Shown here: positions 1,393-47,918 of the stretch, piece by piece
Numbering within the stretch: the first letter of the stretch is position 1
Layout: every line of letters starts with the position of its first letter
NCBI GenBank assembly: GCA_018371855.1
Contig: JAHAKD010000005.1
Span: forward strand, 84,928 to 148,927
DNA from: Clostridium sp.
GTDB lineage: Bacteria; Bacillota; Clostridia; TANB77; CAG-508
DNA length: 64,000 bases
Reading direction: 5' to 3'
Notes under the pieces: generated by a model
Told to the model about the DNA's origin: nothing
Database searches by the model: none
What the model saw: the letters and a program-made list of their open reading frames with translations, nothing else
Made by a program: the position numbers and the translations under genes

Positions 1393-1650
1393 GACAAACA
1401 AAAATCGTCCTTATGTAAAAATATAAGGACGAATATAATCCGCGGTGCCACCTTAAGTTATTATAAAAATAATACACTCAATTAGTAGGGTAACCGCCTA
1501 ACTTACGGTTTAGCTTTCACTAAAAACATCTAAGAGTAGATTCACATATAAATTTTATTTACTTACACCACCCGTAAACTCTCTTAAAAAATTAAATATG
1601 TTACTATTCTCTTATCAAACGTTTATATTAATATGTAACACATTTTAACA
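1393..1650 (-). promoter_or_regulatory. T-box riboswitch leader (candidate Ser specifier UCU) with intrinsic terminator
   Basis: Minus strand reads AACTTAAGGTGGCACCGCGG (T-box consensus AAnnnGGGTGGnACCGCG). It is followed by the hairpin TCGTCCTTATATTTTTACATAAGGACGA and a U-run. Upstream Stem-I-like AAGAGAG ... GAAUCUACUC contains UCU followed by A. Confidence 0.8.
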
Positions 1651-1740: not shown

Positions 1741-1741
1741 A

Positions 1742-1773
1742 TACTTGGAAAGTTATGTAAATTGTGCTATAAT
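1742..1773 (+). promoter_or_regulatory. promoter ATACTTGGAAAGTTATGTAAATTGTGCTATAAT (extended -10)
   Basis: TTGGAA-17-TATAAT with a TGn extension. The first 19 nt are nearly identical to the promoter at 2226. Confidence 0.5.
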
Positions 1774-1899
1774 TATATAGTATCATCATCGGAAAAAGAG
1801 CGGAGTTTTGATAAATAGTTTGTCATTGCTTTAGCTCTGGAACTGGAGGAGACTGTAAGTAGGTAAGGCAGGGAAGACAACGAAGAAAGGAACATAACA

Positions 1900-2157
1900 A
1901 TGTCTAAGACGATCAAGCGGGTTTTGCTAGTTGCACTGGTAGTTGTCCTGATTCTTAGGGCTATTATCCAGGCAGCTACGATTAGCACGCTGAATGAGAA
2001 TATCGCAATCAGTGATGAACTCATCAAGTCCCAGCAGGAAACCATTAATCTCCAGGAACAGGAGATCCAGATTCTCGAGAACAAAATCGAGGAGCTGACC
2101 GGTGATGCTCCAGCAGAGGAGGACACCTCTAGTGATACGGAGGTGCTCACCGTATGA
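1900..2157 (+). CDS. small bitopic membrane protein with coiled coil (FtsB/DivIC-like topology), GC ~45%
   Basis: ORF MSKTIKRVLLVALVVVLILRAI... has an N-terminal TM followed by a heptad-rich segment, then an intrinsic terminator. GC is far above the local ~29%. The antisense ORF 1773..2162 is an artefact of the GC-rich codons. Confidence 0.5.
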   Translation: MSKTIKRVLLVALVVVLILRAIIQAATISTLNENIAISDELIKSQQETINLQEQEIQILENKIEELTGDAPAEEDTSSDTEVLTV

Positions 2158-2164
2158 TACAAGG

Positions 2165-2196
2165 AACGCTCAGCTGCTACAGCTGAGCGTTTTCCG
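2165..2196 (+). terminator. intrinsic terminator (AACGCTCAGCTG-cta-CAGCTGAGCGTT + TTCC)
   Basis: Perfect 12-bp stem followed by a T-rich tract. Confidence 0.6.
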
Positions 2197-2225
2197 TATA
2201 TAAAAAGTAAAACTTTGATATATAT

Positions 2226-2257
2226 ACTTGGAAAATTATGTTAAGCATGGTATAATG
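2226..2257 (+). promoter_or_regulatory. promoter ATACTTGGAAAATTATGTTAAGCATGGTATAAT (extended -10), duplicate of 1742
   Basis: TTGGAA-17-TATAAT with TGG upstream of the -10. Shares 17/19 nt with the 1742 copy. Confidence 0.5.
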
Positions 2258-2291
2258 TAATGCAGAAAAAATTTGAAAGGAGACTTAAGCA

Positions 2292-2645
2292 ATGAGAGAG
2301 TCGGAAAAAAAGAATAGCGAAAAGCTATTCTTGCTGAGGGTATGCTTACCTTCAGTATACGAAGAGATTGGAAATGATGGTGTGGAGGCAGTCGAACAGG
2401 GCTGGGCTAAAGAACAAGATTATAGATTTATAAATGATCTTGTTCACAAATATGTAGCCCGAGCTACAGAAGAAGCCATTTCCTATGAGGGAAGTATGCA
2501 AGAAAAAATTGCTTTATTAAAAAGTTTTAATTTTTTCTTATATGCGTATTTGGAAAATAAAAGCCCAAAAACGCTGGAAGAAATTGAAGCTTTTATTAAA
2601 GAATATTACAACAACGTAGAAAGAGCAGTTAAATTAGGAGGTTAA
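2292..2645 (+). CDS. hypothetical protein (117 aa), GC-atypical islet
   Basis: ORF with RBS AAGGAG; the stop overlaps the RBS of the next gene (translational coupling). GC ~40%. Confidence 0.5.
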   Translation: MRESEKKNSEKLFLLRVCLPSVYEEIGNDGVEAVEQGWAKEQDYRFINDLVHKYVARATEEAISYEGSMQEKIALLKSFNFFLYAYLENKSPKTLEEIEAFIKEYYNNVERAVKLGG

Positions 2646-2649
2646 ATGC

Positions 2650-3228
2650 ATGTTTCTTAAAGACAGATTTGACAAAATGACACGCAAAGACTTGGAAGAA
2701 GAAATACGTGTGTATAAGGATTTCTCCAAGTATAGTCGGAAAGAGATGGAGAAAGAATTAAGAGTTCTTCTTCCAGATATTAATCTGAACGAATTTTCCG
2801 ATCAGGACTTGGAAGATTTGCTAAGAAGTAACTATACTTTTTCCGAGTATACCACAGAGGAGCTTCGTGAAGAAGCAAGGCGACATGAACAGTTCGAAGA
2901 GTGGTCAAGAGAAGAGCTCGAAGAAGAGTATGAAAAACTAGAGGATTCGGAAGAATCAAAAGAGCACAATATAATATGGTTGATCTTTATTGTAGTAGTG
3001 TGTTTATTAATTGGGTATTCATATGGAAGAATGAATACAAAGCTTGAGTACCTCGAACAGAGGACCGAGCAACTTCAGCAGGAGATTAATGTGATGGAAC
3101 AGGAAAATAATCTGTTGGAGGACAGAGTTGATACTTTGTCAGATATTATAGATTTGATAATAATCAATATAACGTCTGACGATGTCGTACCTGAAGAAAA
3201 ACCTGGTACATCAGCACAAATCATTTAA
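2650..3228 (+). CDS. hypothetical coiled-coil membrane protein (192 aa), GC-atypical islet
   Basis: Acidic coiled-coil N-terminus, a central TM (IIWLIFIVVVCLLIGYSYG) and a C-terminal coiled coil. RBS GGAGG; followed by the terminator CCCCTGGCgaaaGCCAGGGG. Confidence 0.5.
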   Translation: MFLKDRFDKMTRKDLEEEIRVYKDFSKYSRKEMEKELRVLLPDINLNEFSDQDLEDLLRSNYTFSEYTTEELREEARRHEQFEEWSREELEEEYEKLEDSEESKEHNIIWLIFIVVVCLLIGYSYGRMNTKLEYLEQRTEQLQQEINVMEQENNLLEDRVDTLSDIIDLIIINITSDDVVPEEKPGTSAQII

Positions 3229-3255
3229 AAAATCAAAAATCAAACTTCACATCTT

Positions 3256-3290
3256 TTCCCCTGGCGAAAGCCAGGGGTATTTCCATTTTA
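3256..3290 (+). terminator. intrinsic terminator
   Basis: CCCCTGGC-GAAA-GCCAGGGG followed by a T-rich tract. Confidence 0.55.
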
Positions 3291-3312
3291 TAGAATAAAA
3301 TTTAAGAAAAAA

Positions 3313-3352
3313 CGAAATTTTGTTTGACAAACAAAAAATCATATGATAGTAT
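3313..3352 (+). promoter_or_regulatory. lexA promoter (TTGACA-17-TAGTAT) with overlapping candidate LexA/Cheo box CGAAATTTTGTTTG
   Basis: 12/14 match to the Firmicutes LexA consensus CGAACnnnnGTTCG, overlapping the -35. Consistent with autoregulation. Confidence 0.45.
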
Positions 3353-3381: not shown

Positions 3382-4023
3382 GTGAAAAAAGATAAAAGTG
3401 ATTTAAATAAAAGAGAGGTAGCAATCTTAAACTTTATATCAAAACAAATAAAAGCAAACCAATATCCACCATCAGTAAGAGAAATTTGTAAAGCTGTAGG
3501 ACTAAATTCAACAGCAACAGTACATGGATATTTAGAAAAATTAGAGCAAAAAGGTTACATAAGAAAAGAATCTCAAAAAGGAAGAGCATTAAGAGTTGTT
3601 AATGAAGATGATGTTATAAGAAAGCCAAAAGATGTTTATGCTGGTAAAGAATTAGTAGATGTACCAGTAGTAGGAAAAATAACTGCAGGCGCACCAATTT
3701 TAGCAGTAGAAAATATAACAGATACTTTTCCAATTCCTTTAGACTTTGTAGGAAATTCAGAAAGCTTTATGCTAACTGTTAGAGGAGAAAGTATGATAGA
3801 AGCAGGTATTTTAGATGGTGACTACATATTAGTAAAACAACAAAATACTGCAGAAAATGGTGAAATCGTTGTAGCTTTAATAGATGACGAAGCAACAGTA
3901 AAAACATTCTACAAAGAAAAAGATTATATAAGATTACAGCCAGAAAATCGCACAATGGCTCCAATAATTGTTCCAGATTGTAAAATACTTGGTAAAGTAG
4001 CTGGCGTATTTAGAAAAATGTAG
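3382..4023 (+). CDS. lexA: LexA repressor (GTG start)
   Basis: N-terminal winged helix and C-terminal S24 peptidase motifs (AG cleavage site in [11 protein letters not shown] in RGESM, K in ...TVKTF). Confidence 0.92.
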
Positions 4024-4071: not shown

Positions 4072-4236
4072 ATGAAAAAAGAAAAAGAGATTAATGAAAT
4101 AGAAGTTGGGGAAGATGTAAGCAGAAATGGTGAATTCATACCAACAAAATTTGCTTGGATAAGTTTAGGATTTCAAAAAGAGAATGCAGAACGCTTACAA
4201 AATATAACAAAAAAAGATGATAAACATAGTAAGTAA
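4072..4236 (+). CDS. possible small protein (54 aa) downstream of lexA
   Basis: ATG preceded by AGGTGA, with no terminator between it and lexA. Below the ORF-track size cut-off. Not recognisable. Confidence 0.25.
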   Translation: MKKEKEINEIEVGEDVSRNGEFIPTKFAWISLGFQKENAERLQNITKKDDKHSK

Positions 4237-4377: not shown

Positions 4378-4719
4378 ATGGATAGTAAAAGTAAAGAAAT
4401 CTATTCTGAACTTAGTGCTTTTTTGGATAGTATAGATGAAGAAAGAAGAAATAAAATACCAGAAGACTTAAGGGAATTAATAAATAGTAAAAAAGACGAT
4501 AACTATACACCTAAATATCCAAAAGGAACTCCTTTAGAAAAATTAAAAATGAAAAAAGAAACAAAGGATATGGTTAATTTACTAAACTTTAATTATTGGT
4601 GTGAAAACGAACAACAACGAAAAGAATTAATGGAACGAATAGCAAATGGCAAGAAGAATGAAGGAGCAAAAGTAAATGCTTTCGATAAAATAAAAAATAT
4701 ATTTAAAAAGAAAAGCTAA
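4378..4719 (+). CDS. hypothetical protein (113 aa)
   Basis: Strong RBS GAAGGAGG and an intrinsic terminator (AAAAGCT-aaa-AGCTTTT + T-run) after the stop. Confidence 0.5.
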   Translation: MDSKSKEIYSELSAFLDSIDEERRNKIPEDLRELINSKKDDNYTPKYPKGTPLEKLKMKKETKDMVNLLNFNYWCENEQQRKELMERIANGKKNEGAKVNAFDKIKNIFKKKS

Positions 4720-4743
4720 AAGCTTTTCTTTTTTGTTATTTGA

Positions 4744-4869
4744 AAATCTTCAGATATAGAAGAATCAGAAAAAGATATGATAGAATATTATAATAACAAA
4801 AGAATTAAGAGCAAAGTAAAAGGAATGTCTCCTATTCTATACAGAAAACATTCCATGCTAGTAGCCTAA
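4744..4869 (+). mobile_element. IS3-family transposase (OrfB) C-terminal remnant
   Basis: In-frame translation ...KDMIEYYNNKRIKSKVKGMSPILYRKHSMLVA* matches the conserved IS3/IS150 integrase C-terminus (IEYYNNERIK.KL.GMSPVQYR). No start codon and no upstream transposase body. Confidence 0.65.
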
Positions 4870-4966
4870 TTTATAATGTCCAACTTTTTAGCCCCACTTT
4901 AATTACGTAAACTATACTATTATATTGTTAAAAAATAAAAAGATAAGGTTTAATATGATAAATAAT

Positions 4967-6208
4967 TTATTTACAATTTTTTAAATTGATTTTATCAATA
5001 CAAATAGAAGCAATAGGTATTAAAACTATTATATAAGGGATTATATACCTTGATTTTGCTTCCCATAAAATGTGAAAAGAAAATCCACCAGCAAAAATTG
5101 TAAGTAAAAATATAACTTCTAGTGATAACTTTTTTCGATTTTGTATTAAAACAATTAATGTACAAGAGCAAGTTAATAGTAATAATGCTTTTTGATAAAA
5201 TTCAAGAGGCTGTATAAAATTCTCTATGAAATCATTATTACTTCTAATATTATTTCTTATAGCAGAATAAGTGTTTTCAGTCCACATAGAAGCTATTTTC
5301 TTAGTATAAAAATCAAAGGTATAATCTGGATTTTTTAAAAAGTAATTTATTTGCTTATAAATATATTTAGGATAATCATGTTTTGCATTATCTGGATTCA
5401 ATAATGTATCTTTTGCAATATCTTCATTATACCATCCATTACCTCTAGGAGATTTTTCCATTGCCATTAAGACATAGCTTATAGTAGGATATTTCTTAGT
5501 ATTATCTAAGTTATACTTATTAGAATAATAATTTATTACTAAGATTGCTGGAAGAATTGAACCTATAATATATATAGCAATTAAACTAATATTTTTTAAA
5601 TTATTTTTTAAAGTGTATTGATTCCACTTGCTAAATAAATTTAACAACATATAGATAATTGTTGCTATTATAAAAATTAAACTATTCATTCTCATCATAT
5701 ATGCAATCGTTGTAAAAAAAATAGTATAAATAAAATATTTTATCTTATGTGTTTCGGTGTAACACATTATAAAATAGGTTGCCAATATGCATAATGCCAA
5801 ACTAGGAAGATCCCCATATATAAATGTGGATAATAATGGTAAAGTAAAAAATGTTAATACTAAAATAAATAATAAAGAAGTATTGGTTGCATATTTTGAT
5901 GATAATTTTAATTGTATTTTATATAATACTATAACAATAGCAATATTGCTTATTATATTTACAATTCTCAACACTTCCATAACATCAAAATGAATTAACC
6001 TAAAAATAAGGCTGAAAATAAATGCTAAAGGTATTTGATGTGTATATGCTTGTATGTATTCATATAATGGCACGCCAATATATGTAGAGTTAAATAGAAA
6101 TTCTTGAGGATTATTTCTGGAAAAAGTTTGTGCAAGGTTACATACATGAACAGAATCACCGACGACTTTAGGATTTATAAAAATAACCCAAAGAATATTA
6201 ACTAGCAA
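4967..6208 (-). CDS. polytopic membrane protein, putative GT-C-fold glycosyltransferase (ArnT/PMT-like); N-terminus may continue in ORF 6223..6456
   Basis: Eleven or more predicted TM segments with a large extracytoplasmic loop. No RBS before the first Met. The adjacent upstream ORF carries two TMs and a DE dipeptide. Confidence 0.4.
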   Translation of the reverse strand: MLVNILWVIFINPKVVGDSVHVCNLAQTFSRNNPQEFLFNSTYIGVPLYEYIQAYTHQIPLAFIFSLIFRLIHFDVMEVLRIVNIISNIAIVIVLYKIQLKLSSKYATNTSLLFILVLTFFTLPLLSTFIYGDLPSLALCILATYFIMCYTETHKIKYFIYTIFFTTIAYMMRMNSLIFIIATIIYMLLNLFSKWNQYTLKNNLKNISLIAIYIIGSILPAILVINYYSNKYNLDNTKKYPTISYVLMAMEKSPRGNGWYNEDIAKDTLLNPDNAKHDYPKYIYKQINYFLKNPDYTFDFYTKKIASMWTENTYSAIRNNIRSNNDFIENFIQPLEFYQKALLLLTCSCTLIVLIQNRKKLSLEVIFLLTIFAGGFSFHILWEAKSRYIIPYIIVLIPIASICIDKINLKNCK

Positions 6209-6222
6209 ATATATTAGTAATG

Positions 6223-6456
6223 CTATTCTAAATGTTTTTCGTCTATAAGAAACACTTTTTTATATAGAATTTTATTGGTTATATTAGCTATATAATAGAT
6301 AGTAATAATTAATAAAATCATCCCCAAATTATATAACCATGAATTATAAGAAATACTAATATGTTCTGAATTATTAAGAAATGATGTATATAATAAGTTT
6401 AAAATAATAATTATAATTAAGAATATCATTCCTAAAAAATATATGATTTTTTTCAA
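6223..6456 (-). CDS. small membrane protein (77 aa), possibly the frameshifted N-terminus of the downstream GT-C protein
   Basis: Two TM helices; ends ...LIDEKHLE 15 nt before the next ORF in another frame. Confidence 0.35.
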   Translation of the reverse strand: MKKIIYFLGMIFLIIIIILNLLYTSFLNNSEHISISYNSWLYNLGMILLIITIYYIANITNKILYKKVFLIDEKHLE

Positions 6457-6477
6457 TTTATTTCTCCATTCCTATAA

Positions 6478-7041
6478 TTATAGATATTGATTGCGTACTT
6501 TATTTAATACTGTTATTATACTTGCTTTTGGAGTCAATTTATATAATAACATTTTTTCTTTTTCGCGCTCATTTGTTGCTTTAATAATATTAGTTTTTAT
6601 ATTATTTATACTTTTCTGATGTTTATAACTGATATATTTATAAACATTTTGCTCGAGATTATCTACAAAATCAAAATTATTTCTATTATATACATACATA
6701 ATAGCCTCTATAATATAAAGAGTTCCTTTGTATTTAATATTATATACTTGTCTTGGCAAATCTGTATCTCCAGAAATAACTATTATTTGAGGCTTTTTTA
6801 TAGTATTCATATATTTTAAATCTTCTAAAATATTAATCCCATTTCCATCTGGTAAATTTATATCTAAAAAGATTAAATCTATTTGATTGTTTGATAAAAT
6901 ACTAATCCCTTCTTTATATGTAGTTGCAATATAAGAAAGTTGTATGTTTTTAAATTTACTTAAAATAGAATTTAAGATTCTTTTAGAAAAACTCAAGTCA
7001 TCTTCAATTATCAAAGCTTTTATTAAGTTGTTATTCATCAT
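6478..7041 (-). CDS. orphan response regulator (REC domain plus short uncharacterised C-terminus)
   Basis: ALIIEDD ... LIFLDINLPDGNG receiver motifs. No adjacent histidine kinase. Co-oriented directly downstream of the sigma/anti-sigma pair. Confidence 0.7.
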   Translation of the reverse strand: MMNNNLIKALIIEDDLSFSKRILNSILSKFKNIQLSYIATTYKEGISILSNNQIDLIFLDINLPDGNGINILEDLKYMNTIKKPQIIVISGDTDLPRQVYNIKYKGTLYIIEAIMYVYNRNNFDFVDNLEQNVYKYISYKHQKSINNIKTNIIKATNEREKEKMLLYKLTPKASIITVLNKVRNQYL

Positions 7042-7075
7042 GATCCTTCCTTTGGCTGTCTCAATACTTTATTTT

Positions 7076-7939
7076 TTAATTTTCTGAGTCCGGTGGGAAA
7101 ATATCATTATCAGAAACAATATTTGTTTCTATTAAAAATGTACGTTCAAAATTAATTTCACCGTTATTTTTTTGAACTTCTCTAACTGGTAGCATTATTT
7201 TTTTATCAATCCATAATTCCCTAGTATTACCAAATAAAATTACATAGCAATCTTTATCATTATAAGTATCTTCTTTTATTTTTAAACTAATTATATTAAG
7301 TTTGTTTTGCATATAATTTTCTATATCAATAAAGCAATTAAAAATAGAACCTTTTGATTTATATGGATATGTAGTATTATTAAATGATGTATTTGTATTG
7401 TAATCTTTATGAATTACGTCATTAGTATAAATATTTCCATAATTTATTATTTCTTTAGTATTATTAGAGTAAGATTCACTTTTAAATGTACCATCTTTAT
7501 AATAATAAATATCTGTAAATGAATTTATTTCTTCGCTATTTGGCGTTATGTAGTATTGTGTCATTGTGAATTTATAGTTATCCATATTTTTAGCTTCTTG
7601 AATTTTGTCATATGTTTTTGATATTATAGAATATCTAGGAATATATGTGGTTAAGAAAGAAATAAGTAATAATATTATTGCTATTAGAAAAACAGAAATA
7701 CTAATTTTTAATATAGCCATTTTTTTTCTATACTTCTTTATTTGATGGATTTCTGCTTGTTCTTCCAAAAAGCTAGTATCTATTTCTTGAATCATATTAC
7801 CTTGCATATTATTTAATATTTCTTTACATTCTGGACATTCTTTAATATGTGTTTCGATAAAATCCTTTGTTTGATTACCTACCAAATTTTCTATATAATT
7901 AGGTAACAAATCTCTTACAATCTCACATTCCTTTTTCAT
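7076..7939 (-). CDS. anti-sigma factor (zf-HC2 N-terminus, single TM, extracytoplasmic domain)
   Basis: CEIVRDLLPNY...HIKECPECKE zinc-finger signature and a TM at ~95-115. Overlaps the sigma-factor gene by 17 nt. Confidence 0.75.
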   Translation of the reverse strand: MKKECEIVRDLLPNYIENLVGNQTKDFIETHIKECPECKEILNNMQGNMIQEIDTSFLEEQAEIHQIKKYRKKMAILKISISVFLIAIILLLISFLTTYIPRYSIISKTYDKIQEAKNMDNYKFTMTQYYITPNSEEINSFTDIYYYKDGTFKSESYSNNTKEIINYGNIYTNDVIHKDYNTNTSFNNTTYPYKSKGSIFNCFIDIENYMQNKLNIISLKIKEDTYNDKDCYVILFGNTRELWIDKKIMLPVREVQKNNGEINFERTFLIETNIVSDNDIFPPDSEN

Positions 7940-8414
7940 TTTTAAATCTCTCCTTTAATTTAGATTTTGCACGATAAAAAGTTATTCTTGCCCATACTTC
8001 ACTTCTGTTTAATACTTTTCCAATTTGCTTGAATGATAATTCACCTTCAATTCTTAGTTTTACAACATCTTTAGTGAGATTATCTAATTTTTCTATTTCA
8101 TTATGCAAAGCAATTAAATCACTATTGTTTAAAATTTTTTCTTCAACATCATCTTTAGTTAACCAGTTTTCAATTACATTGTCTAAACTAATAGTTTGTA
8201 TTTTATTATATTTGATTTGATAATTTTTTAATTTGTTTTTTGCTATTTCACATAACCACGAATACATACTACAATTACCTTTAAAATCTTTAATTCCCTT
8301 TATAGCACTATAAAAAGTTTCTTGCATAAGTTCTTCAGAAAGTTCGTGGTTCTTTGTTAAGCTATATAAAAATCTATATACTTGTTTAGAATATTTTTTG
8401 TATATTTCCTCCAT
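7923..8414 (-). CDS. ECF-type sigma-70 family RNA polymerase sigma factor
   Basis: Region 2 (ELMQETFYSAIKGIKDF) and region 4 HTH (LSFKQIGKVLNRSEVWARITFYRAKSKL). Start MEEIYKKY with RBS GGTGGTG. Confidence 0.8.
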   Translation of the reverse strand: MEEIYKKYSKQVYRFLYSLTKNHELSEELMQETFYSAIKGIKDFKGNCSMYSWLCEIAKNKLKNYQIKYNKIQTISLDNVIENWLTKDDVEEKILNNSDLIALHNEIEKLDNLTKDVVKLRIEGELSFKQIGKVLNRSEVWARITFYRAKSKLKERFKNEKGM

Positions 8415-8754
8415 TACACCACCTTCTATATATAAGACAAGAATTTTTATCAATTTGTTACAAAATCTTTAAAAATTTTATAATATTTTACTATTTTTTA
8501 TTACTTTTTGTTATCTTCTATTATCTTTTTTACAAAAAACATTTTTGTGTGCTATAAATTATATCCAACAACTATGTTGTAGGTTAAAGCAAAAGTATGG
8601 ATTTATGGATAAAAGCATAAAGAATTACTTATAGGAGAATATGGATGTAATCTATAGAAAATAATTTTTTAGCCCAATTCTATCTTTAAAACAATTTTTA
8701 TTGTACCAGCTTTTCATATAAAGAAAAGCTGGTTTTTCGGTATATTAAATAAAA

Positions 8755-10455
8755 CTACATAATATTAAATTGGCTTTTGTACATATTATAATATGCTCCT
8801 TTTTTATTGATTAATTCATCATGAGTGCCAACTTCTGCGATATTACCATCTTCTATAAAAACAATAAAATCACAGTTTTTTATTGTAGATAATCTATGTG
8901 CAATAATTATAGAGGTAGAATTCGAAGTTAATTCTAGTATAGCTTTTTTTATCATATCTTCTGTTAGTAAATCGACATTACTTGTAGCTTCATCTAAAAT
9001 TAAAATAGGTGGTTTTATTAGCATAATTCTAGCAATGTTTAATAACTGTACTTCGCCTTCAGAAAGCATATCAGAATTTGATATATACGTATCATAGCCA
9101 TCAGGTAATTTTTCTATAAATGTGCTGGCAAAAGATAATTCCGCAGCTTGTTTAATCTCTTCTATACTTGCATTGGGTTTTCCATATGCAATATTTTCCA
9201 TTATAGTACCTTGAAAAATATTAGTATCTTGAAGAACCATACCGATATTTTTTCTTAAATTATTAATGTTAATATCTTTTATGTTTGTATTATCTATTAA
9301 TATTTCACCACTAGATATTTCGTAAAATCTATTTAATAAATTAATTATTGTAGTTTTACCAGAGCCCGTTTTACCAACTATAGCAATACTTTTTCCATTA
9401 GGAATATATAAACTAAAATCTTGTATAAAAGGTTTATCAGTATACGAAAAATATACATTTTTAAATTCTATAGAATAATTAGGTTTTTCTGGCAGTTTAA
9501 TAGTATTACTAGAAGGTAGATTTTCTATAATAGGAGTAGTTATAAATTTTAAAATCCTTTTGTAAGAAGCAATAGCAGTTTGGATTTCACTAAATACAGC
9601 TGTTATCTCGTTAAATGGTCTAGTAAACAAATTTGTATATATTAAAAAAGTAGAGATATTACCAATTGTTAAATTTCCGTTTTTACAAAATATAATTCCA
9701 AGCATAGCAATTATTATATAAGAAAGGTTTGAAACAAACCTAGTACTAGGATTTGTAAGTGAAGAATAAAACTGTGTTTTATACCCATAGTTATATAATT
9801 CAGAATTTTTTTCTTCGAAATTTTTATTAGGTATTTCAATATAATTAAAATTATCGAAAGTCTTTTTACCACTTATTAATTCGTCAGTATAAGCATTTAA
9901 ATTTGCTAATAAATCTGCTCTTTTAACAAACATTTTATTTGTATGTGAAACGATGTATTTAGATATAGCAAACATTAGTAAAGATAAGACTATAAGTAAA
10001 ATTGTTAAAGGTATATTTAAATTTATCATTATATAAGTAGCTAATATAATGGTAAATATCCCACTTATAATTTTAGAAATGCTTTGCATAGTTCCATTAG
10101 AAATATTTTCTATATCTGTAGAAAACATGTTTATAATTTCACCTTTTTCGAAGCTTTCTAAAATAGATAGTGGTAAGGTATTTATTTTATTAAAAAGAAT
10201 AGTCCTAATATTTCGAGAAAGTTTTGTAGCATAACTAGTTAAAAAATAATTTAATAAAAAATTACTAATAAATAGAAAAATAAATATTAGAGCAAGACTA
10301 ATAAAATAATTTATTAAGCTTGTATTTGTTCCTAGTTTATCTATTAAATTACCTATTATAACAGGATAAGTAATACTTAAGCCTGCAGAAAGGACAGAAA
10401 ATATAATTATTAATAAAATATAAAATTTAGAAAACTTAAATTTAAATAATTTCAT
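8755..10455 (-). CDS. ABC exporter, fused permease/ATPase subunit
   Basis: Six-TM N-terminal domain; Walker A GKTGSGKTT; signature LSEGEVQLL; Walker B ILILDEATS. Confidence 0.85.
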   Translation of the reverse strand: MKLFKFKFSKFYILLIIIFSVLSAGLSITYPVIIGNLIDKLGTNTSLINYFISLALIFIFLFISNFLLNYFLTSYATKLSRNIRTILFNKINTLPLSILESFEKGEIINMFSTDIENISNGTMQSISKIISGIFTIILATYIMINLNIPLTILLIVLSLLMFAISKYIVSHTNKMFVKRADLLANLNAYTDELISGKKTFDNFNYIEIPNKNFEEKNSELYNYGYKTQFYSSLTNPSTRFVSNLSYIIIAMLGIIFCKNGNLTIGNISTFLIYTNLFTRPFNEITAVFSEIQTAIASYKRILKFITTPIIENLPSSNTIKLPEKPNYSIEFKNVYFSYTDKPFIQDFSLYIPNGKSIAIVGKTGSGKTTIINLLNRFYEISSGEILIDNTNIKDININNLRKNIGMVLQDTNIFQGTIMENIAYGKPNASIEEIKQAAELSFASTFIEKLPDGYDTYISNSDMLSEGEVQLLNIARIMLIKPPILILDEATSNVDLLTEDMIKKAILELTSNSTSIIIAHRLSTIKNCDFIVFIEDGNIAEVGTHDELINKKGAYYNMYKSQFNIM

Positions 10456-15944: not shown

Positions 15945-17150
15945 TTAATATTTTACAATGTCATTATATGTTTCTATTGCATAACTATCTGTCATACCAG
16001 AAATATATGTAATAATAGCTTTTTGATAATCTTTAATATCATTCATGTTATATAAAATTTTGTTTTTCAAATGAGATCTATCTGTTTCTATGTTCCAATA
16101 ACAAGAAATCCACTTTATAAAAGTATCAATCACTTTAGGATAAAATGGTCTTTCAATGTTTAATTTCTCTAAAGTATTTATACCATCATAACATTCATTT
16201 AATGTATTAAATATTTCGTTAAGCACAAGACTAAAATATCTTTCTGAAGGTTTCATACATTTGTGTTTATAAATATATTTGTAATTAAATTGTTTTAATC
16301 TTTTTATTTTTTCAAATGTAGTTTCAGAAAATTTTAAGCCTTCTTCTAAAGAGGAATTAATACATAGATCAGCTATTAAATCACCTATAATATTAGTATT
16401 ATTTAAATTAGCACTTCTAGGTTGTTCTAATAAATCATATAATTCATTTAAATTACTATCTAGTATTCCCATAGAAATGGCATCTTCTATATCTCTACCT
16501 AAATATGAGATTTTATCAGAAATTTTAACAACGCAACCCTCCCAAGTATATGGGGAATATTGGTTAAGTTTAAAATAATCTTTTTCTAAATCGATAAATT
16601 CAGTTCTAGGTTTTAAAGAAATTTCATCAATTTCACCACAGTGAGATATAATACCATCTCTTACTGCATATGTTAAGTTTAGATTTTTTTCTTCGTTATT
16701 AACATTTGTTAGCAATTCTATATTATCAACAAAATTTAAACCATTTCTTTCATGCCAAAAAGATTCTAAACCATTTTCCATACAAATTTTATTTAAAATT
16801 TGTTCGCCTTTATGTCCAAAAGGGCTATGACCAATATCGTGTGATATAGAAATGGCTCTTGTTAAAGTGGTATTTAAACCTAATGCTTTTGCAATTGTAT
16901 AACTTGTTGCATCAACATTGTTTACATGTTCAATACGAGTACAAATATGATCATTTTTTGGTAAAAAGAATACCTGTGTTTTATGCTTTAATCTTCTATA
17001 AGCATTACAATATATGATTCTATCATAATCTCTTTCGAATTCAGAGCGTACATCATTTTCTTTTTTATATAGTTCATCTCTTCTTGAAATTAAATTATTC
17101 CAATTAGGGTTAGATGGGGTAGCAGCAACACTACTAAATTTTAAATCCAT
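15945..17150 (-). CDS. dgt: dGTP triphosphohydrolase-like HD-domain protein
   Basis: ISHDIGHSPFGHKGE HD motif and the dGTPase-family N-terminus (DYDRIIY...RRLKHKTQVF). Confidence 0.8.
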   Translation of the reverse strand: MDLKFSSVAATPSNPNWNNLISRRDELYKKENDVRSEFERDYDRIIYCNAYRRLKHKTQVFFLPKNDHICTRIEHVNNVDATSYTIAKALGLNTTLTRAISISHDIGHSPFGHKGEQILNKICMENGLESFWHERNGLNFVDNIELLTNVNNEEKNLNLTYAVRDGIISHCGEIDEISLKPRTEFIDLEKDYFKLNQYSPYTWEGCVVKISDKISYLGRDIEDAISMGILDSNLNELYDLLEQPRSANLNNTNIIGDLIADLCINSSLEEGLKFSETTFEKIKRLKQFNYKYIYKHKCMKPSERYFSLVLNEIFNTLNECYDGINTLEKLNIERPFYPKVIDTFIKWISCYWNIETDRSHLKNKILYNMNDIKDYQKAIITYISGMTDSYAIETYNDIVKY

Positions 17151-17241
17151 TAAAATACCTCCTATAATTTATATATAAGATAGTGTATCATAAAAATAAT
17201 ATAATGATAAGAAATTTTGTTCGAAAAAATTAAAAAAGTAC

Positions 17242-43389: not shown

Positions 43390-43447
43390 AACGGGATATG
43401 GAAAGCCCCTGGGGGATTTTGGGGACGTTCCTTAAATCCCCGTTTTT
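43390..43447 (+). terminator. palindromic repeat copy C functioning as an intrinsic terminator (GGGGGATTTTGGGGACGTTCCTTAAATCCCCGTTTTTT)
   Basis: Same GGACGTTCC core with an outer AAACGGG/CCCCGTTT stem, followed by a T-run. Confidence 0.6.
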
Positions 43448-47367: not shown

Positions 47368-47552
47368 AATATTTCCTCCTTTGTTAATTTTATTTAATAT
47401 ATCATAAGAAAAGAACAAAAAAATATTAATTCAATAAGAAGTCTATTTACTGCCTTTTGCCTTTTATAAGCAAATGTGCTATAATAAATTTTGAGAAACT
47501 TGTAGATATAGCCATTGCACATTAAGTGCAAAGTCTAATAGGAGGAAGAAAT

Positions 47553-47918
47553 ATGAGAGAAATATTAGCAGAAACGAATGCAATAGAAACAATTAGGAAA
47601 ATAATTGTTGATTGCATTCGGAACAACAAGTGCGAAAGTACACAAGTATGGCTTCATGACGGAGTAGTAAAGAAACTTAAGAACGCACAAATTTATGGGA
47701 CAATTAATGTACCATATGAAGGTTGCATAATGTCAGCTTTTAAGCTCAAAAACGGTGAGAAGATGGAAATAACATATAAACGGGAAAAGAGCATAGCTAT
47801 AAGAAATTGGCACAATACATGGAGCAACATGAATGTCATTAAACATGTATATTTCCCGGATAGTAACGAGTACTTTTTCTTTGGAGCTGTAAATAAGGAA
47901 ATCTTAGTAATTAAGTAA
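47553..47918 (+). CDS. hypothetical protein (121 aa)
   Basis: RBS AGGAGG. GC ~34%. Followed by the hairpin ACATGGCTTTTCTAC/GTAGGAGAGCCATGT. Confidence 0.45.
   Translation: MREILAETNAIETIRKIIVDCIRNNKCESTQVWLHDGVVKKLKNAQIYGTINVPYEGCIMSAFKLKNGEKMEITYKREKSIAIRNWHNTWSNMNVIKHVYFPDSNEYFFFGAVNKEILVIK

Follow-up and report, generated by a model that had tools for sequence, protein, structure and literature searches.

A three-gene cassette between the serS T-box leader and lexA

The DNA analyzed here, referred to as the window (W), is a 64-kb stretch (positions 84,928 to 148,927 of contig JAHAKD010000005.1, assembly GCA_018371855.1) from Clostridium sp. Directly upstream of lexA, it carries three small plus-strand open reading frames (ORF1, ORF2, and ORF3, or genes 1 to 3), and to their left, on the minus strand, lie serS and a DUF1653 gene with their T-box leader. 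A first-pass annotation of the sequence had described the three genes as a GC-rich islet with duplicated promoters and had attributed it to recent horizontal acquisition. The results below point instead to an old cassette restricted to a single lineage, a genus of uncultured gut Clostridia with low GC content (Clostridium sp. CAG:354-like metagenome-assembled genomes, MAGs), and the high GC content of the cassette, above all at third codon positions (GC3), appears to be a maintained property of the locus.

Terminator and promoter scans, inverted- and direct-repeat searches, folding energies, an Rfam scan, and Pfam profiles were applied to the window; L-numbers are labels for the loci of relatives used in the comparisons. 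The features of the locus, in window coordinates, are as follows.

1422–1627, minus strand: T-box leader of the DUF1653–serS operon, conserved left flank (Rfam RF00230, 110.8 bits, expectation value (E) 1e-24)
1702–1739: 38-nucleotide (nt) palindrome resembling repetitive extragenic palindromic (REP) elements, left cassette edge, adjoining promoter P1 (inverted repeat folding at −23 kcal/mol)
1741–1773, plus strand: promoter P1, one copy of a 33-nt repeat (−35 TTGGAA at 1745–1750; TGnTATAAT extended −10 ending at 1773)
1774–1899, plus strand: leader of gene 1 (hairpin at 1797–1838; Shine-Dalgarno (SD)-like GGAGGAG at 1845–1851 with no start codon after it; true SD GAAAGGAA at 1885–1892)
1900–2157, plus strand: gene 1 (ORF1), 85 amino acids (aa), NCBI hypothetical protein MBS5864269.1
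2165–2191, plus strand: hairpin after gene 1, a perfect 12-bp stem followed by UUUUCC, probable, possibly leaky, terminator (−22.2 kcal/mol)
2224–2256, plus strand: promoter P2, second copy of the promoter repeat (27/33 identical to P1)
2292–2645, plus strand: gene 2 (ORF2), 117 aa, predicted soluble all-helical orphan
2650–3228, plus strand: gene 3 (ORF3), 192 aa, with a hypervariable core at 2886–3000
3258–3290, plus strand: terminator after gene 3, right cassette edge (8-bp GC stem and T-rich tail, −18.2 kcal/mol; called by the scan at 3258–3277; conserved in relatives)
3311–3352, plus strand: lexA operator and promoter, invariant right flank (CGAAATTTTGTTTGACAAAC; TTGACA-17-TAGTAT)
3382–4023, plus strand: lexA (LexA_DNA_bind PF01726 and Peptidase_S24 PF00717)

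The three ORFs are present with the lengths given earlier, and so are the two homologous promoters ascribed to gene 1 and to genes 2 and 3. P1 and P2 each read TTGGAA-17-TATAAT with a TG-extended −10, which is near-consensus for the sigma-A type, and they form a direct repeat 483 bp apart with 82% identity. The proposed search for further copies of this repeat was run on the 64-kb window and returned no other good match to its 18-nt core. As a regulon marker, the motif was discarded, with no other good copy in the window and a single match in L003/L006 that stems from a synonymous substitution within gene 3. The SD of gene 3 sits within the final codons of gene 2. That each transcription unit has its own terminator holds for gene 3, whose terminator was called by the scan; the hairpin after gene 1 is strong-stemmed but was not called, because its U run is short.

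Base composition and codon usage

The GC content of the whole window is 0.272, and the compositional contrast of the islet to this background is real but uneven. ORF1 has a GC content of 0.48 and a GC3 of 0.59, ORF2 of 0.35 and 0.29, and ORF3 of 0.37 and 0.38, respectively, compared to a mean GC3 of 0.16 for the 64 long ORFs in the window; the bin 2001–3000 (GC 0.375) is the top 1-kb GC bin. The earlier figure of ~45% is therefore about right for gene 1 (48%), but ~40% is too high for genes 2 and 3 (35% and 37%), and the background is 27% rather than ~29%. A check of codon usage and GC3 confirmed that the genes are atypical, most strongly ORF1, whose codon-adaptation index is 0.19, while 61 other ORFs in the window have 0.72 ± 0.08. 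Host-rare codons make up 42% of the ORF1 codons, and the host favorites TTA, ATA, CAA, and ACA are not used at all. As the GC excess lies mainly at third codon positions, it is not an amino-acid effect.

A 129-aa open frame on the minus strand (1773–2162) was considered as an antisense gene and rejected as a by-product of the codon usage of gene 1; the open antisense frame is not the same one in all gene 1 orthologs, and some open frame is expected in 35–50% of synonymous reshuffles.

Two other places in the window hold GC3-rich ORFs with low codon adaptation. On the minus strand at 55576–57067, a 325-aa RelA_SpoT-domain protein, possibly a toxic small alarmone synthetase, and its 142-aa neighbor have GC3 values of 0.34–0.36, and a 130-aa orphan lies at 47526–47918.

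Distribution among relatives

The check for presence or absence in relatives placed the cassette at the same locus in every congener examined (L007–L022). Exact copies of ORF3 occur in 110 blocks of public assemblies, always in an identical context, and homologs of 55–78% identity were traced to contigs with the same neighbors. A scan with LexA as the query across one genome per GTDB species yielded eleven congeners (LexA 88–100% identical), in which serS or its T-box stands on one side wherever the contig reaches and the genes in the gap are homologous or architecturally equivalent. The gap holds ORF2 and ORF3 in four of them (L012, L014, L015, and L016), all three ORFs in two (L013 and L017), only an ORF1-like gene in three (L018, L020, and L021), and only an ORF3-like gene in two (L019 and L022). 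ORF3 is split in L017, which could be a MAG error. In W and in L012–L022 alike, the last gene before lexA encodes a protein with a transmembrane (TM) helix and a coiled coil.

In relatives with a LexA identity of 82% or less, the cassette is absent, and mostly obg or unrelated genes lie upstream of lexA. The T-box, which also flanks the cassette site in L018, L021, L025, and L041, is followed in the more distant relative L025 by an empty site, with 131 nt between T-box and lexA; such a site would also fit a cassette that inserted long ago, at the root of the genus.

Homolog searches confine the cassette family to one genus. When 1.84 billion proteins were searched exhaustively with an ORF2 profile, 6 representatives were retrieved, each belonging to this group, and ORF2 has 70 close clusters. 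The exhaustive search covered ORF2 only, and the word-indexed search for ORF1 homologs is blind below ~60% identity. No cassette homolog was found outside the genus, no relative in phage and plasmid collections (blastn) or in three scans of IMG/VR, and no paralog elsewhere in the window. Neither a donor homolog nor a mobility gene nor a direct-repeat attachment (att) site for the cassette was found in the window and the protein clusters; apart from a dispersed host palindrome, no repeat flanks the cassette. Gene calls in several metagenomes skipped ORF1.

Two relatives showed other events at this site. In L041 (Candidatus Merdicola sp., serS 81% identical), the gap between T-box and lexA (4982–6000) holds ~1 kb of different DNA with a GC content up to 44%, including two paralogous-looking minus-strand ORFs transcribed divergently to lexA. 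Throughout the family, this gap may thus be a hot spot where DNA is inserted. In L007 (an ERZ21549435 contig; 2420–2884 and 6863–7365), lexA, gene 2, and ABC transporter genes are in fragments, and an IS200-like Y1 transposase adjoins serS. This breakage reflects either a decaying genome or frameshifts in a long-read assembly.

Divergence, selection, and maintenance of GC3

The islet is more diverged than its surroundings. Between W and sister species, nucleotide identity is 93–97% for the flank genes and 77–93% for the islet genes. In the comparison with L009, synonymous divergence (dS) is 0.49–0.85 and nonsynonymous divergence (dN) 0.11–0.16 in the islet, compared to 0.13–0.43 and 0.004–0.036 in the flank genes. 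Mean pairwise dN/dS is 0.15–0.31 in every domain of all three proteins, which indicates that all three ORFs, ORF1 included, are real coding genes, and they are under purifying selection. No domain had a dN/dS near or above 1, so positive selection was not found at the domain level. Between species, the proportion of synonymous differences (pS) in ORF1 is at least 0.75 (0.64 for the pair L017/L020), with a dN of 0.5–0.86 and an aa identity of 24–44%. The corresponding values for lexA are a dS of 0.44–0.86 and a dN of 0.02–0.06, and the dN of ORF1 is 15–25 times that of lexA.

A sliding comparison showed that the nearest neighbor of W switches repeatedly within the islet, where identity ranges from 64% to 97%, while lexA and the downstream genes stay at 89–100%; the hypervariable core (2886–3000) lies in gene 3. 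The repeated switching indicates that the cassette is a mosaic of recombined alleles. To the left, the DUF1653 gene (1067–1330) and its orthologs fall into two allele classes, with ~83% and ~93% nucleotide identity to W, that do not follow the serS and lexA distances, indicating that recombination extends beyond the cassette on this side.

All ORF1 orthologs have a GC3 of 0.45–0.62, including those with only 24–44% protein identity, compared to 0.06–0.24 for flanking genes. ORF2 and ORF3 are less consistent, being near native composition in L016 and L017 (GC3 0.17–0.25). Third-position changes in the close clade were polarized by taking the minority state as derived, a crude rule applied here to small counts: GC-to-AT versus AT-to-GC changes numbered 10/9 in ORF1, 3/7 in ORF2, and 9/23 in ORF3, that is, without a GC-to-AT excess in the islet. 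Per site, the two directions are about equally fast in the islet, and GC-to-AT changes are 2–3.5 times faster in lexA and serS. A passively decaying import would have reached the host GC3 of ~0.15 by the time synonymous sites were saturated. GC3 is still high past this saturation, which argues for a composition maintained at the locus rather than a residue of recent transfer.

Duplicated promoters and the loss of gene 1

P1 is conserved in L007, L013, L093–95, and L018, and the alleles that lack gene 1 are of two types. In type A (L008, L014, L012, and L015), the palindrome is followed by a single chimeric P1/P2 promoter, in which, in L015, GGAAAGTTATGT of P1 is joined to TAAGTATGGTATAAT of P2; this is the product expected from recombination across the 483-bp repeat. 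In type B (L009–L011), a deletion runs from the palindrome center to the 3ʹ side of the ORF1 hairpin, with CGTT/TGTT microhomology at the junction. Because ORF1-like genes exist in outgroup species, the absences of gene 1 are losses. Gene 1 was deleted at least twice, and only where ORF3 is present. Recombination between the homologous promoters has removed it in several lineages, which shows how the duplication of a promoter can lead to a single gene being deleted from a cassette.

Every species has kept at least one TM and coiled-coil gene directly upstream of lexA, and the pattern of ORF1 loss suggests that genes 1 and 3 overlap in function. Homology between ORF1 and the C-terminal half of ORF3 was not demonstrable (hhalign probability 8.7%), and on this value the idea that gene 1 is a paralog of that half was rejected.

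The palindrome at the left edge belongs to a dispersed REP-like family (TAGGGATTTnGGGGACGTTCCnnAAATCCCTA), located mostly at gene ends and convergent junctions. Copies were seen in W at 1702–1739, ~32140–32165, 43413–43440, and 57839–57885 and in L001 at 2048–2083, 7066–7102, and 17041–17079. These copies probably represent a bidirectional terminator or REP element restricted to this species.

The three proteins

Genes 1 and 3 have the architecture claimed for two of the proteins, a TM helix plus a coiled coil of the FtsB/DivIC/FtsL type. The gene 1 product has a basic N-terminus (K3, K6, and R7), a single TM helix at ~8–27 with the N-terminus inside, about four coiled-coil heptads, and an acidic tail; in its membrane-proximal I-x3-T-I motif, I23, T27, and I28 are invariant across 18 sequences. 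The gene 3 product has an acidic cytoplasmic N-terminal domain with five [ST]xxE(L/M) helix-start motifs, a TM helix at ~107–126 with an invariant Cys, an extracytoplasmic coiled coil, and a conserved C-terminal II. Its AlphaFold2 model (predicted local distance difference test score, pLDDT, 71) comprises four short helices and one continuous 90-residue helix (87–176) spanning TM and coiled coil. Both are predicted to be type-II bitopic membrane proteins with a short extracytoplasmic coiled coil. Gene 2, modeled with six helices (pLDDT 63), probably encodes a small cytoplasmic helical protein. Searched against the PDB with Foldseek, neither the gene 2 nor the gene 3 model gave a match with E < 1.

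By profile comparison, residues 53–109 of gene 3, a helical acidic repeat region, matched PDB 6n7m weakly (E 5e-5), in a short and compositionally biased segment. This structure is CD630_05490 of C. difficile, which differs in being a secreted signal-peptide protein of the WalR regulon with no known function, and the likeness adds no mechanism. A type I toxin–antitoxin system was also considered; gene 1 is acidic and longer than typical toxins.

Within gene 2, a hairpin at 2310–2332 (AAGAATAGC-GAAAA-GCTATTCTT) covers codons 7–14, an invariant peptide stretch, and reads as a terminator on the minus strand. A second hairpin at 2412–2445 is formed by the 12-nt inverted repeat GAACAAGATTAT...ATGATCTTGTTC, and a promoter-like site lies on the minus strand at 2446–2419 (18 promoter-like sites were counted against 12 expected). 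Together, this site and the hairpins could define an antisense RNA of ~110 nt.

The leader of gene 1

The 5ʹ untranslated region of gene 1, put at ~125 nt before, spans ~120 nt between the predicted −10 and the ATG and has the same architecture in other species. Across five lineages with unrelated leader sequences, a single layout recurs: a 9–14-bp hairpin ends 1–6 nt before a GGAGG/GGGAGG, after which comes the real SD. In the nine loci examined, the GGAGG/GGGAGG stands 51–55 nt before the ATG (64 nt in L020). RNAalifold found five outer stem pairs with compensatory changes in all five, and the hairpins fold better than shuffled sequences (z −1.0 to −3.3). A riboswitch or other known RNA was rejected, as the leader had no Rfam match at E ≤ 1, and so was a leader peptide translated after the GGAGGAG, as no consistent start codon could be read across species.

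The closest known devices are the stabilizing SD (STAB-SD) and 5ʹ stem-loop stabilizers of cry3A in B. thuringiensis and of aprE and hbs in B. subtilis. At a STAB-SD, a non-initiating SD is occupied by a 30S subunit, which blocks RNase J, and in cry3A, with its leader of 129 nt, this element is located close to the 5ʹ end (PMC4113751). The gene 1 leader resembles it in having a GGAGG far from the real start that initiates no ORF, a hairpin before it, and a length of ~120 nt; it differs in that its hairpin begins ~17 nt from the predicted 5ʹ end. By analogy, the leader may act as a STAB-SD-like stabilizer of the mRNA against 5ʹ-3ʹ decay.

Interpretation

Taken together, we read the islet as an old, genus-restricted, fast-evolving, and recombining cassette of orphan membrane proteins with a maintained GC3 and a role in the envelope or the divisome, and we put the probability of this whole reading at about 0.55. 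In such a cassette, transcription from P1 and P2 would be largely constitutive, because the promoters are near-consensus and have no operator, and the leader of gene 1 would block 5ʹ-3ʹ decay in the manner of the STAB-SD and 5ʹ-hairpin stabilizers of Bacillus mRNAs. Genes 1 and 3 would overlap in function. Their products might oligomerize through the coiled coils on the external side of the membrane and act on the envelope or the late divisome, as the lexA-linked single-pass proteins SosA and YneA do, which is the weakest step of the proposal. Unlike that of SosA and YneA, control would be post-transcriptional rather than LexA-based.

Of most interest is the force that keeps GC3 this distant from the equilibrium of the genome. 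Selection could keep the excess, either because host-rare codons act as a translation throttle or because AU-rich RNase sites are avoided; alternatively, GC-biased repair could keep it at a recombination hot spot. The sequence favors neither selection on codons or mRNA nor GC-biased repair. GC-biased gene conversion of recombining bacterial genes was reportedly described by Lassalle et al. in 2015, and the cassette resembles that situation in that recombination is local and GC3 in the recombining segment exceeds the genomic level elsewhere; the effect here (GC3 of 0.6 versus 0.15) is far larger than what was reportedly found genome-wide. It is doubtful that the host-rare GC-ending codons are actively maintained genus-wide, by selection or GC-biased repair, and that the product is at the same time a new, LexA-box-independent modulator of the envelope or division of the SosA/YneA type. 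Rare codons maintained by selection would throttle translation or, jointly with the STAB-SD-like leader, serve mRNA stability.

Several points weigh against the old, maintained envelope cassette. Its basis is sequence, and the source genomes are without exception MAGs. If alleles were replaced again and again from an unsampled pool of higher GC content, GC3 would likewise stay high, and the ORF1 search would overlook such a pool below ~60% identity. The polarization of GC changes is a crude rule applied to small counts. Adjacency to lexA within one genus may be plain vertical inheritance and not a functional link, and a strong unregulated promoter with a stabilized mRNA fits a toxic division inhibitor poorly. 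The redundancy of genes 1 and 3 is read from architecture and loss pattern only, because homology of ORF1 and ORF3 is not demonstrable.

The cassette is genuine and unusual, not revolutionary, and a division inhibitor is a minority hypothesis. It is a counter-example to reading a GC or codon anomaly as recent horizontal transfer, since its own anomaly, at a fixed site, has persisted beyond synonymous saturation. Should GC3 be maintained by selection or by biased repair, the locus would offer a compact natural system for local composition off the mutational equilibrium in an extremely AT-rich genome. The proteins are also a new candidate for the poorly conserved class of lexA-neighboring single-pass membrane proteins, in widespread uncultured human gut Clostridia.

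Alternative explanations

The position beside lexA raises an SOS-controlled division inhibitor of the YneA/SosA/DivS class, with P1 and/or P2 repressed by LexA and damage-induced small membrane proteins whose extracellular region blocks the late divisome (FtsW, a penicillin-binding protein, or FtsL) until a C-terminal protease removes them. SosA has 77 aa, a TM helix at 10–30, and 25–60% identity between species, and in lexA-linked SOS inhibitors the extracellular C-terminal part is active (PMC6851548). The cassette proteins resemble SosA of Staphylococcus and YneA of Bacillus and Listeria in being small, single-pass with the N-terminus in and the C-terminus out, encoded next to lexA (in every congener), and fast-diverging, as is typical of the class. 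For gene 1, the length of 85 aa, the TM helix at ~8–27, the extracellular C-terminus, and the membrane-proximal conservation all match SosA (PMC6851548). The extreme C-terminus of gene 3 is conserved, and rare codons could cap the amount of a toxic product.

The operator evidence points the other way. A position weight matrix (PWM) was built from 79 aligned lexA promoters of the family (L012–L091), which share cAAA(C/A)TTTTGTTTGACA overlapping the −35. The genus version CGAAATTTTGTTTGACAAAC (3311–3328) contains the palindrome TTTTGTTTG-A-CAAACAAAA, and the site CGAAATTTTGTTTG lies at 3313–3326 in the lexA promoter; AAAC-N4-GTTT, rather than GAAC-N4-GTTC, is the candidate clade-specific LexA operator. 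At 3311, the PWM gives 25.1 bits, compared to a maximum of −4.3 bits within 1640–2300, the region of P1 and P2, and CGAAMNNNNGTTYG with one mismatch allowed had no match in the islet. The P2 spacer AAAATTATGTTA resembles AAAC-N4-GTTT, but equal matches to this degenerate core occur 1174 times in the window, and a LexA box at P1 or P2 was rejected. LexA control thus finds no support in the sequence. The cassette further differs from SosA and YneA in that its genes are co-directional with lexA, with a terminator between them and the lexA operator, whereas all described members of the YneA/SosA/DivS/ChiZ class are divergent (PMC6851548). It has its own strong, near-consensus promoters without a LexA box and a leader like an mRNA stabilizer, outside the cell it presents a coiled coil that ends in an acidic tail, with no LysM domain (profile search), and it contains two such genes plus a soluble partner. 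Of the marks of the class, lexA adjacency, an N-terminal TM helix, and membrane-proximal conservation were found, and a LexA operator was not. We consider SOS control unlikely, and a SosA/YneA-like role in the envelope or division is possible by analogy.

The second-best operator match in the window, AGAAATTTTGTTCG (8.5 bits), is located at 17208–17225, where a divergent gene for an HD-domain (dGTPase-like) protein lies on one side and the ctsR operon on the other, possibly marking an SOS-box gene.

An accessory module for phage interaction, superinfection exclusion, or a toxin-like function, expressed constitutively and caught in an arms race with the serS–lexA gap as a hot spot for allele swaps, would suit orphan genes of atypical composition with mosaic recombination, a hypervariable segment at 2886–3000, constitutive-looking promoters, and a gene 1 that comes and goes. 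Weak matches to Rz-like spanins (PHROG 739/214; E 2e-5 and 1.8e-4) and a marginal one to SieB (E 0.17) lean the same way. However, spanins belong to phages of diderm hosts, and the matches span only the TM and coiled-coil stretch; with no phage genes nearby and no viral relatives found, an Rz-like i-spanin was rejected. A defense system was rejected too, as neither gene 1 nor gene 3 had a PADLOC match and that of gene 2, to HamA, was marginal (E 0.023). No relatives turned up in the phage and plasmid collections or in IMG/VR, no domain has the dN/dS near or above 1 that was looked for, and the cassette occupies one fixed chromosomal site in all species rather than being patchy. Such a module seems rather improbable.

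Bona fide divisome components, that is, paralogs of FtsL, DivIC, or FtsB standing beside lexA by chance, are very unlikely. The cassette proteins are like these in being bitopic, with the N-terminus inside, of similar size, and with a membrane-proximal extracytoplasmic coiled coil resembling a leucine zipper. The first-pass annotation had called gene 1 FtsB/DivIC-like, which holds for its topology but not for family membership, as the profile cut-offs were missed. All family matches (DivIC, FtsL, PspB, and Rz-like spanins) are below threshold and confined to the TM and coiled-coil stretch: DivIC PF04977 scores 9.8 bits with gene 1 and 15 bits (E 0.021) with gene 3 against a cut-off of 28.9 bits, and FtsL TIGR02209 scores 15.7 bits (E 0.011) with gene 3 against 42.45 bits. 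The cassette genes are not conserved and do not behave as single-copy essential genes, gene 1 having been lost repeatedly. A dN 15–25 times that of lexA, the confinement of the family to one genus, and a locus outside a division cluster, be it the dcw or the yabQ–divIC context, also speak against this assignment.

A recently acquired foreign islet whose donor GC content is not yet ameliorated, as first proposed, is not borne out and is the least probable of all: GC and GC3 far above the host's, an ORF1 codon usage that would suit a genome of ~50% GC (inferred from the codon table), and the empty site in L025 would fit it, but synteny contradicts it, with the same site occupied in about ten congeneric species, and the cassette is more, not less, diverged than its flanks, keeps a high GC3 after synonymous saturation, shows no bias to GC-to-AT changes, and has yielded no donor homolog, mobility gene, direct-repeat att site, or phage or plasmid relative.

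Genes downstream of lexA

Directly 3ʹ of lexA, two small genes of 54 and 113 aa (4072–4236 and 4378–4719) are conserved across the genus and have native composition; profile searches gave no family match for either. The segment that follows (4740–8756) encodes a PMT_2 glycosyltransferase, a response regulator, and a pair of zf-HC2 anti-sigma and sigma-70_r2 proteins. It is present in W, L002, L004, and L005 and absent from L003, L006, and the sister species. This region just downstream of lexA is a second indel hot spot.

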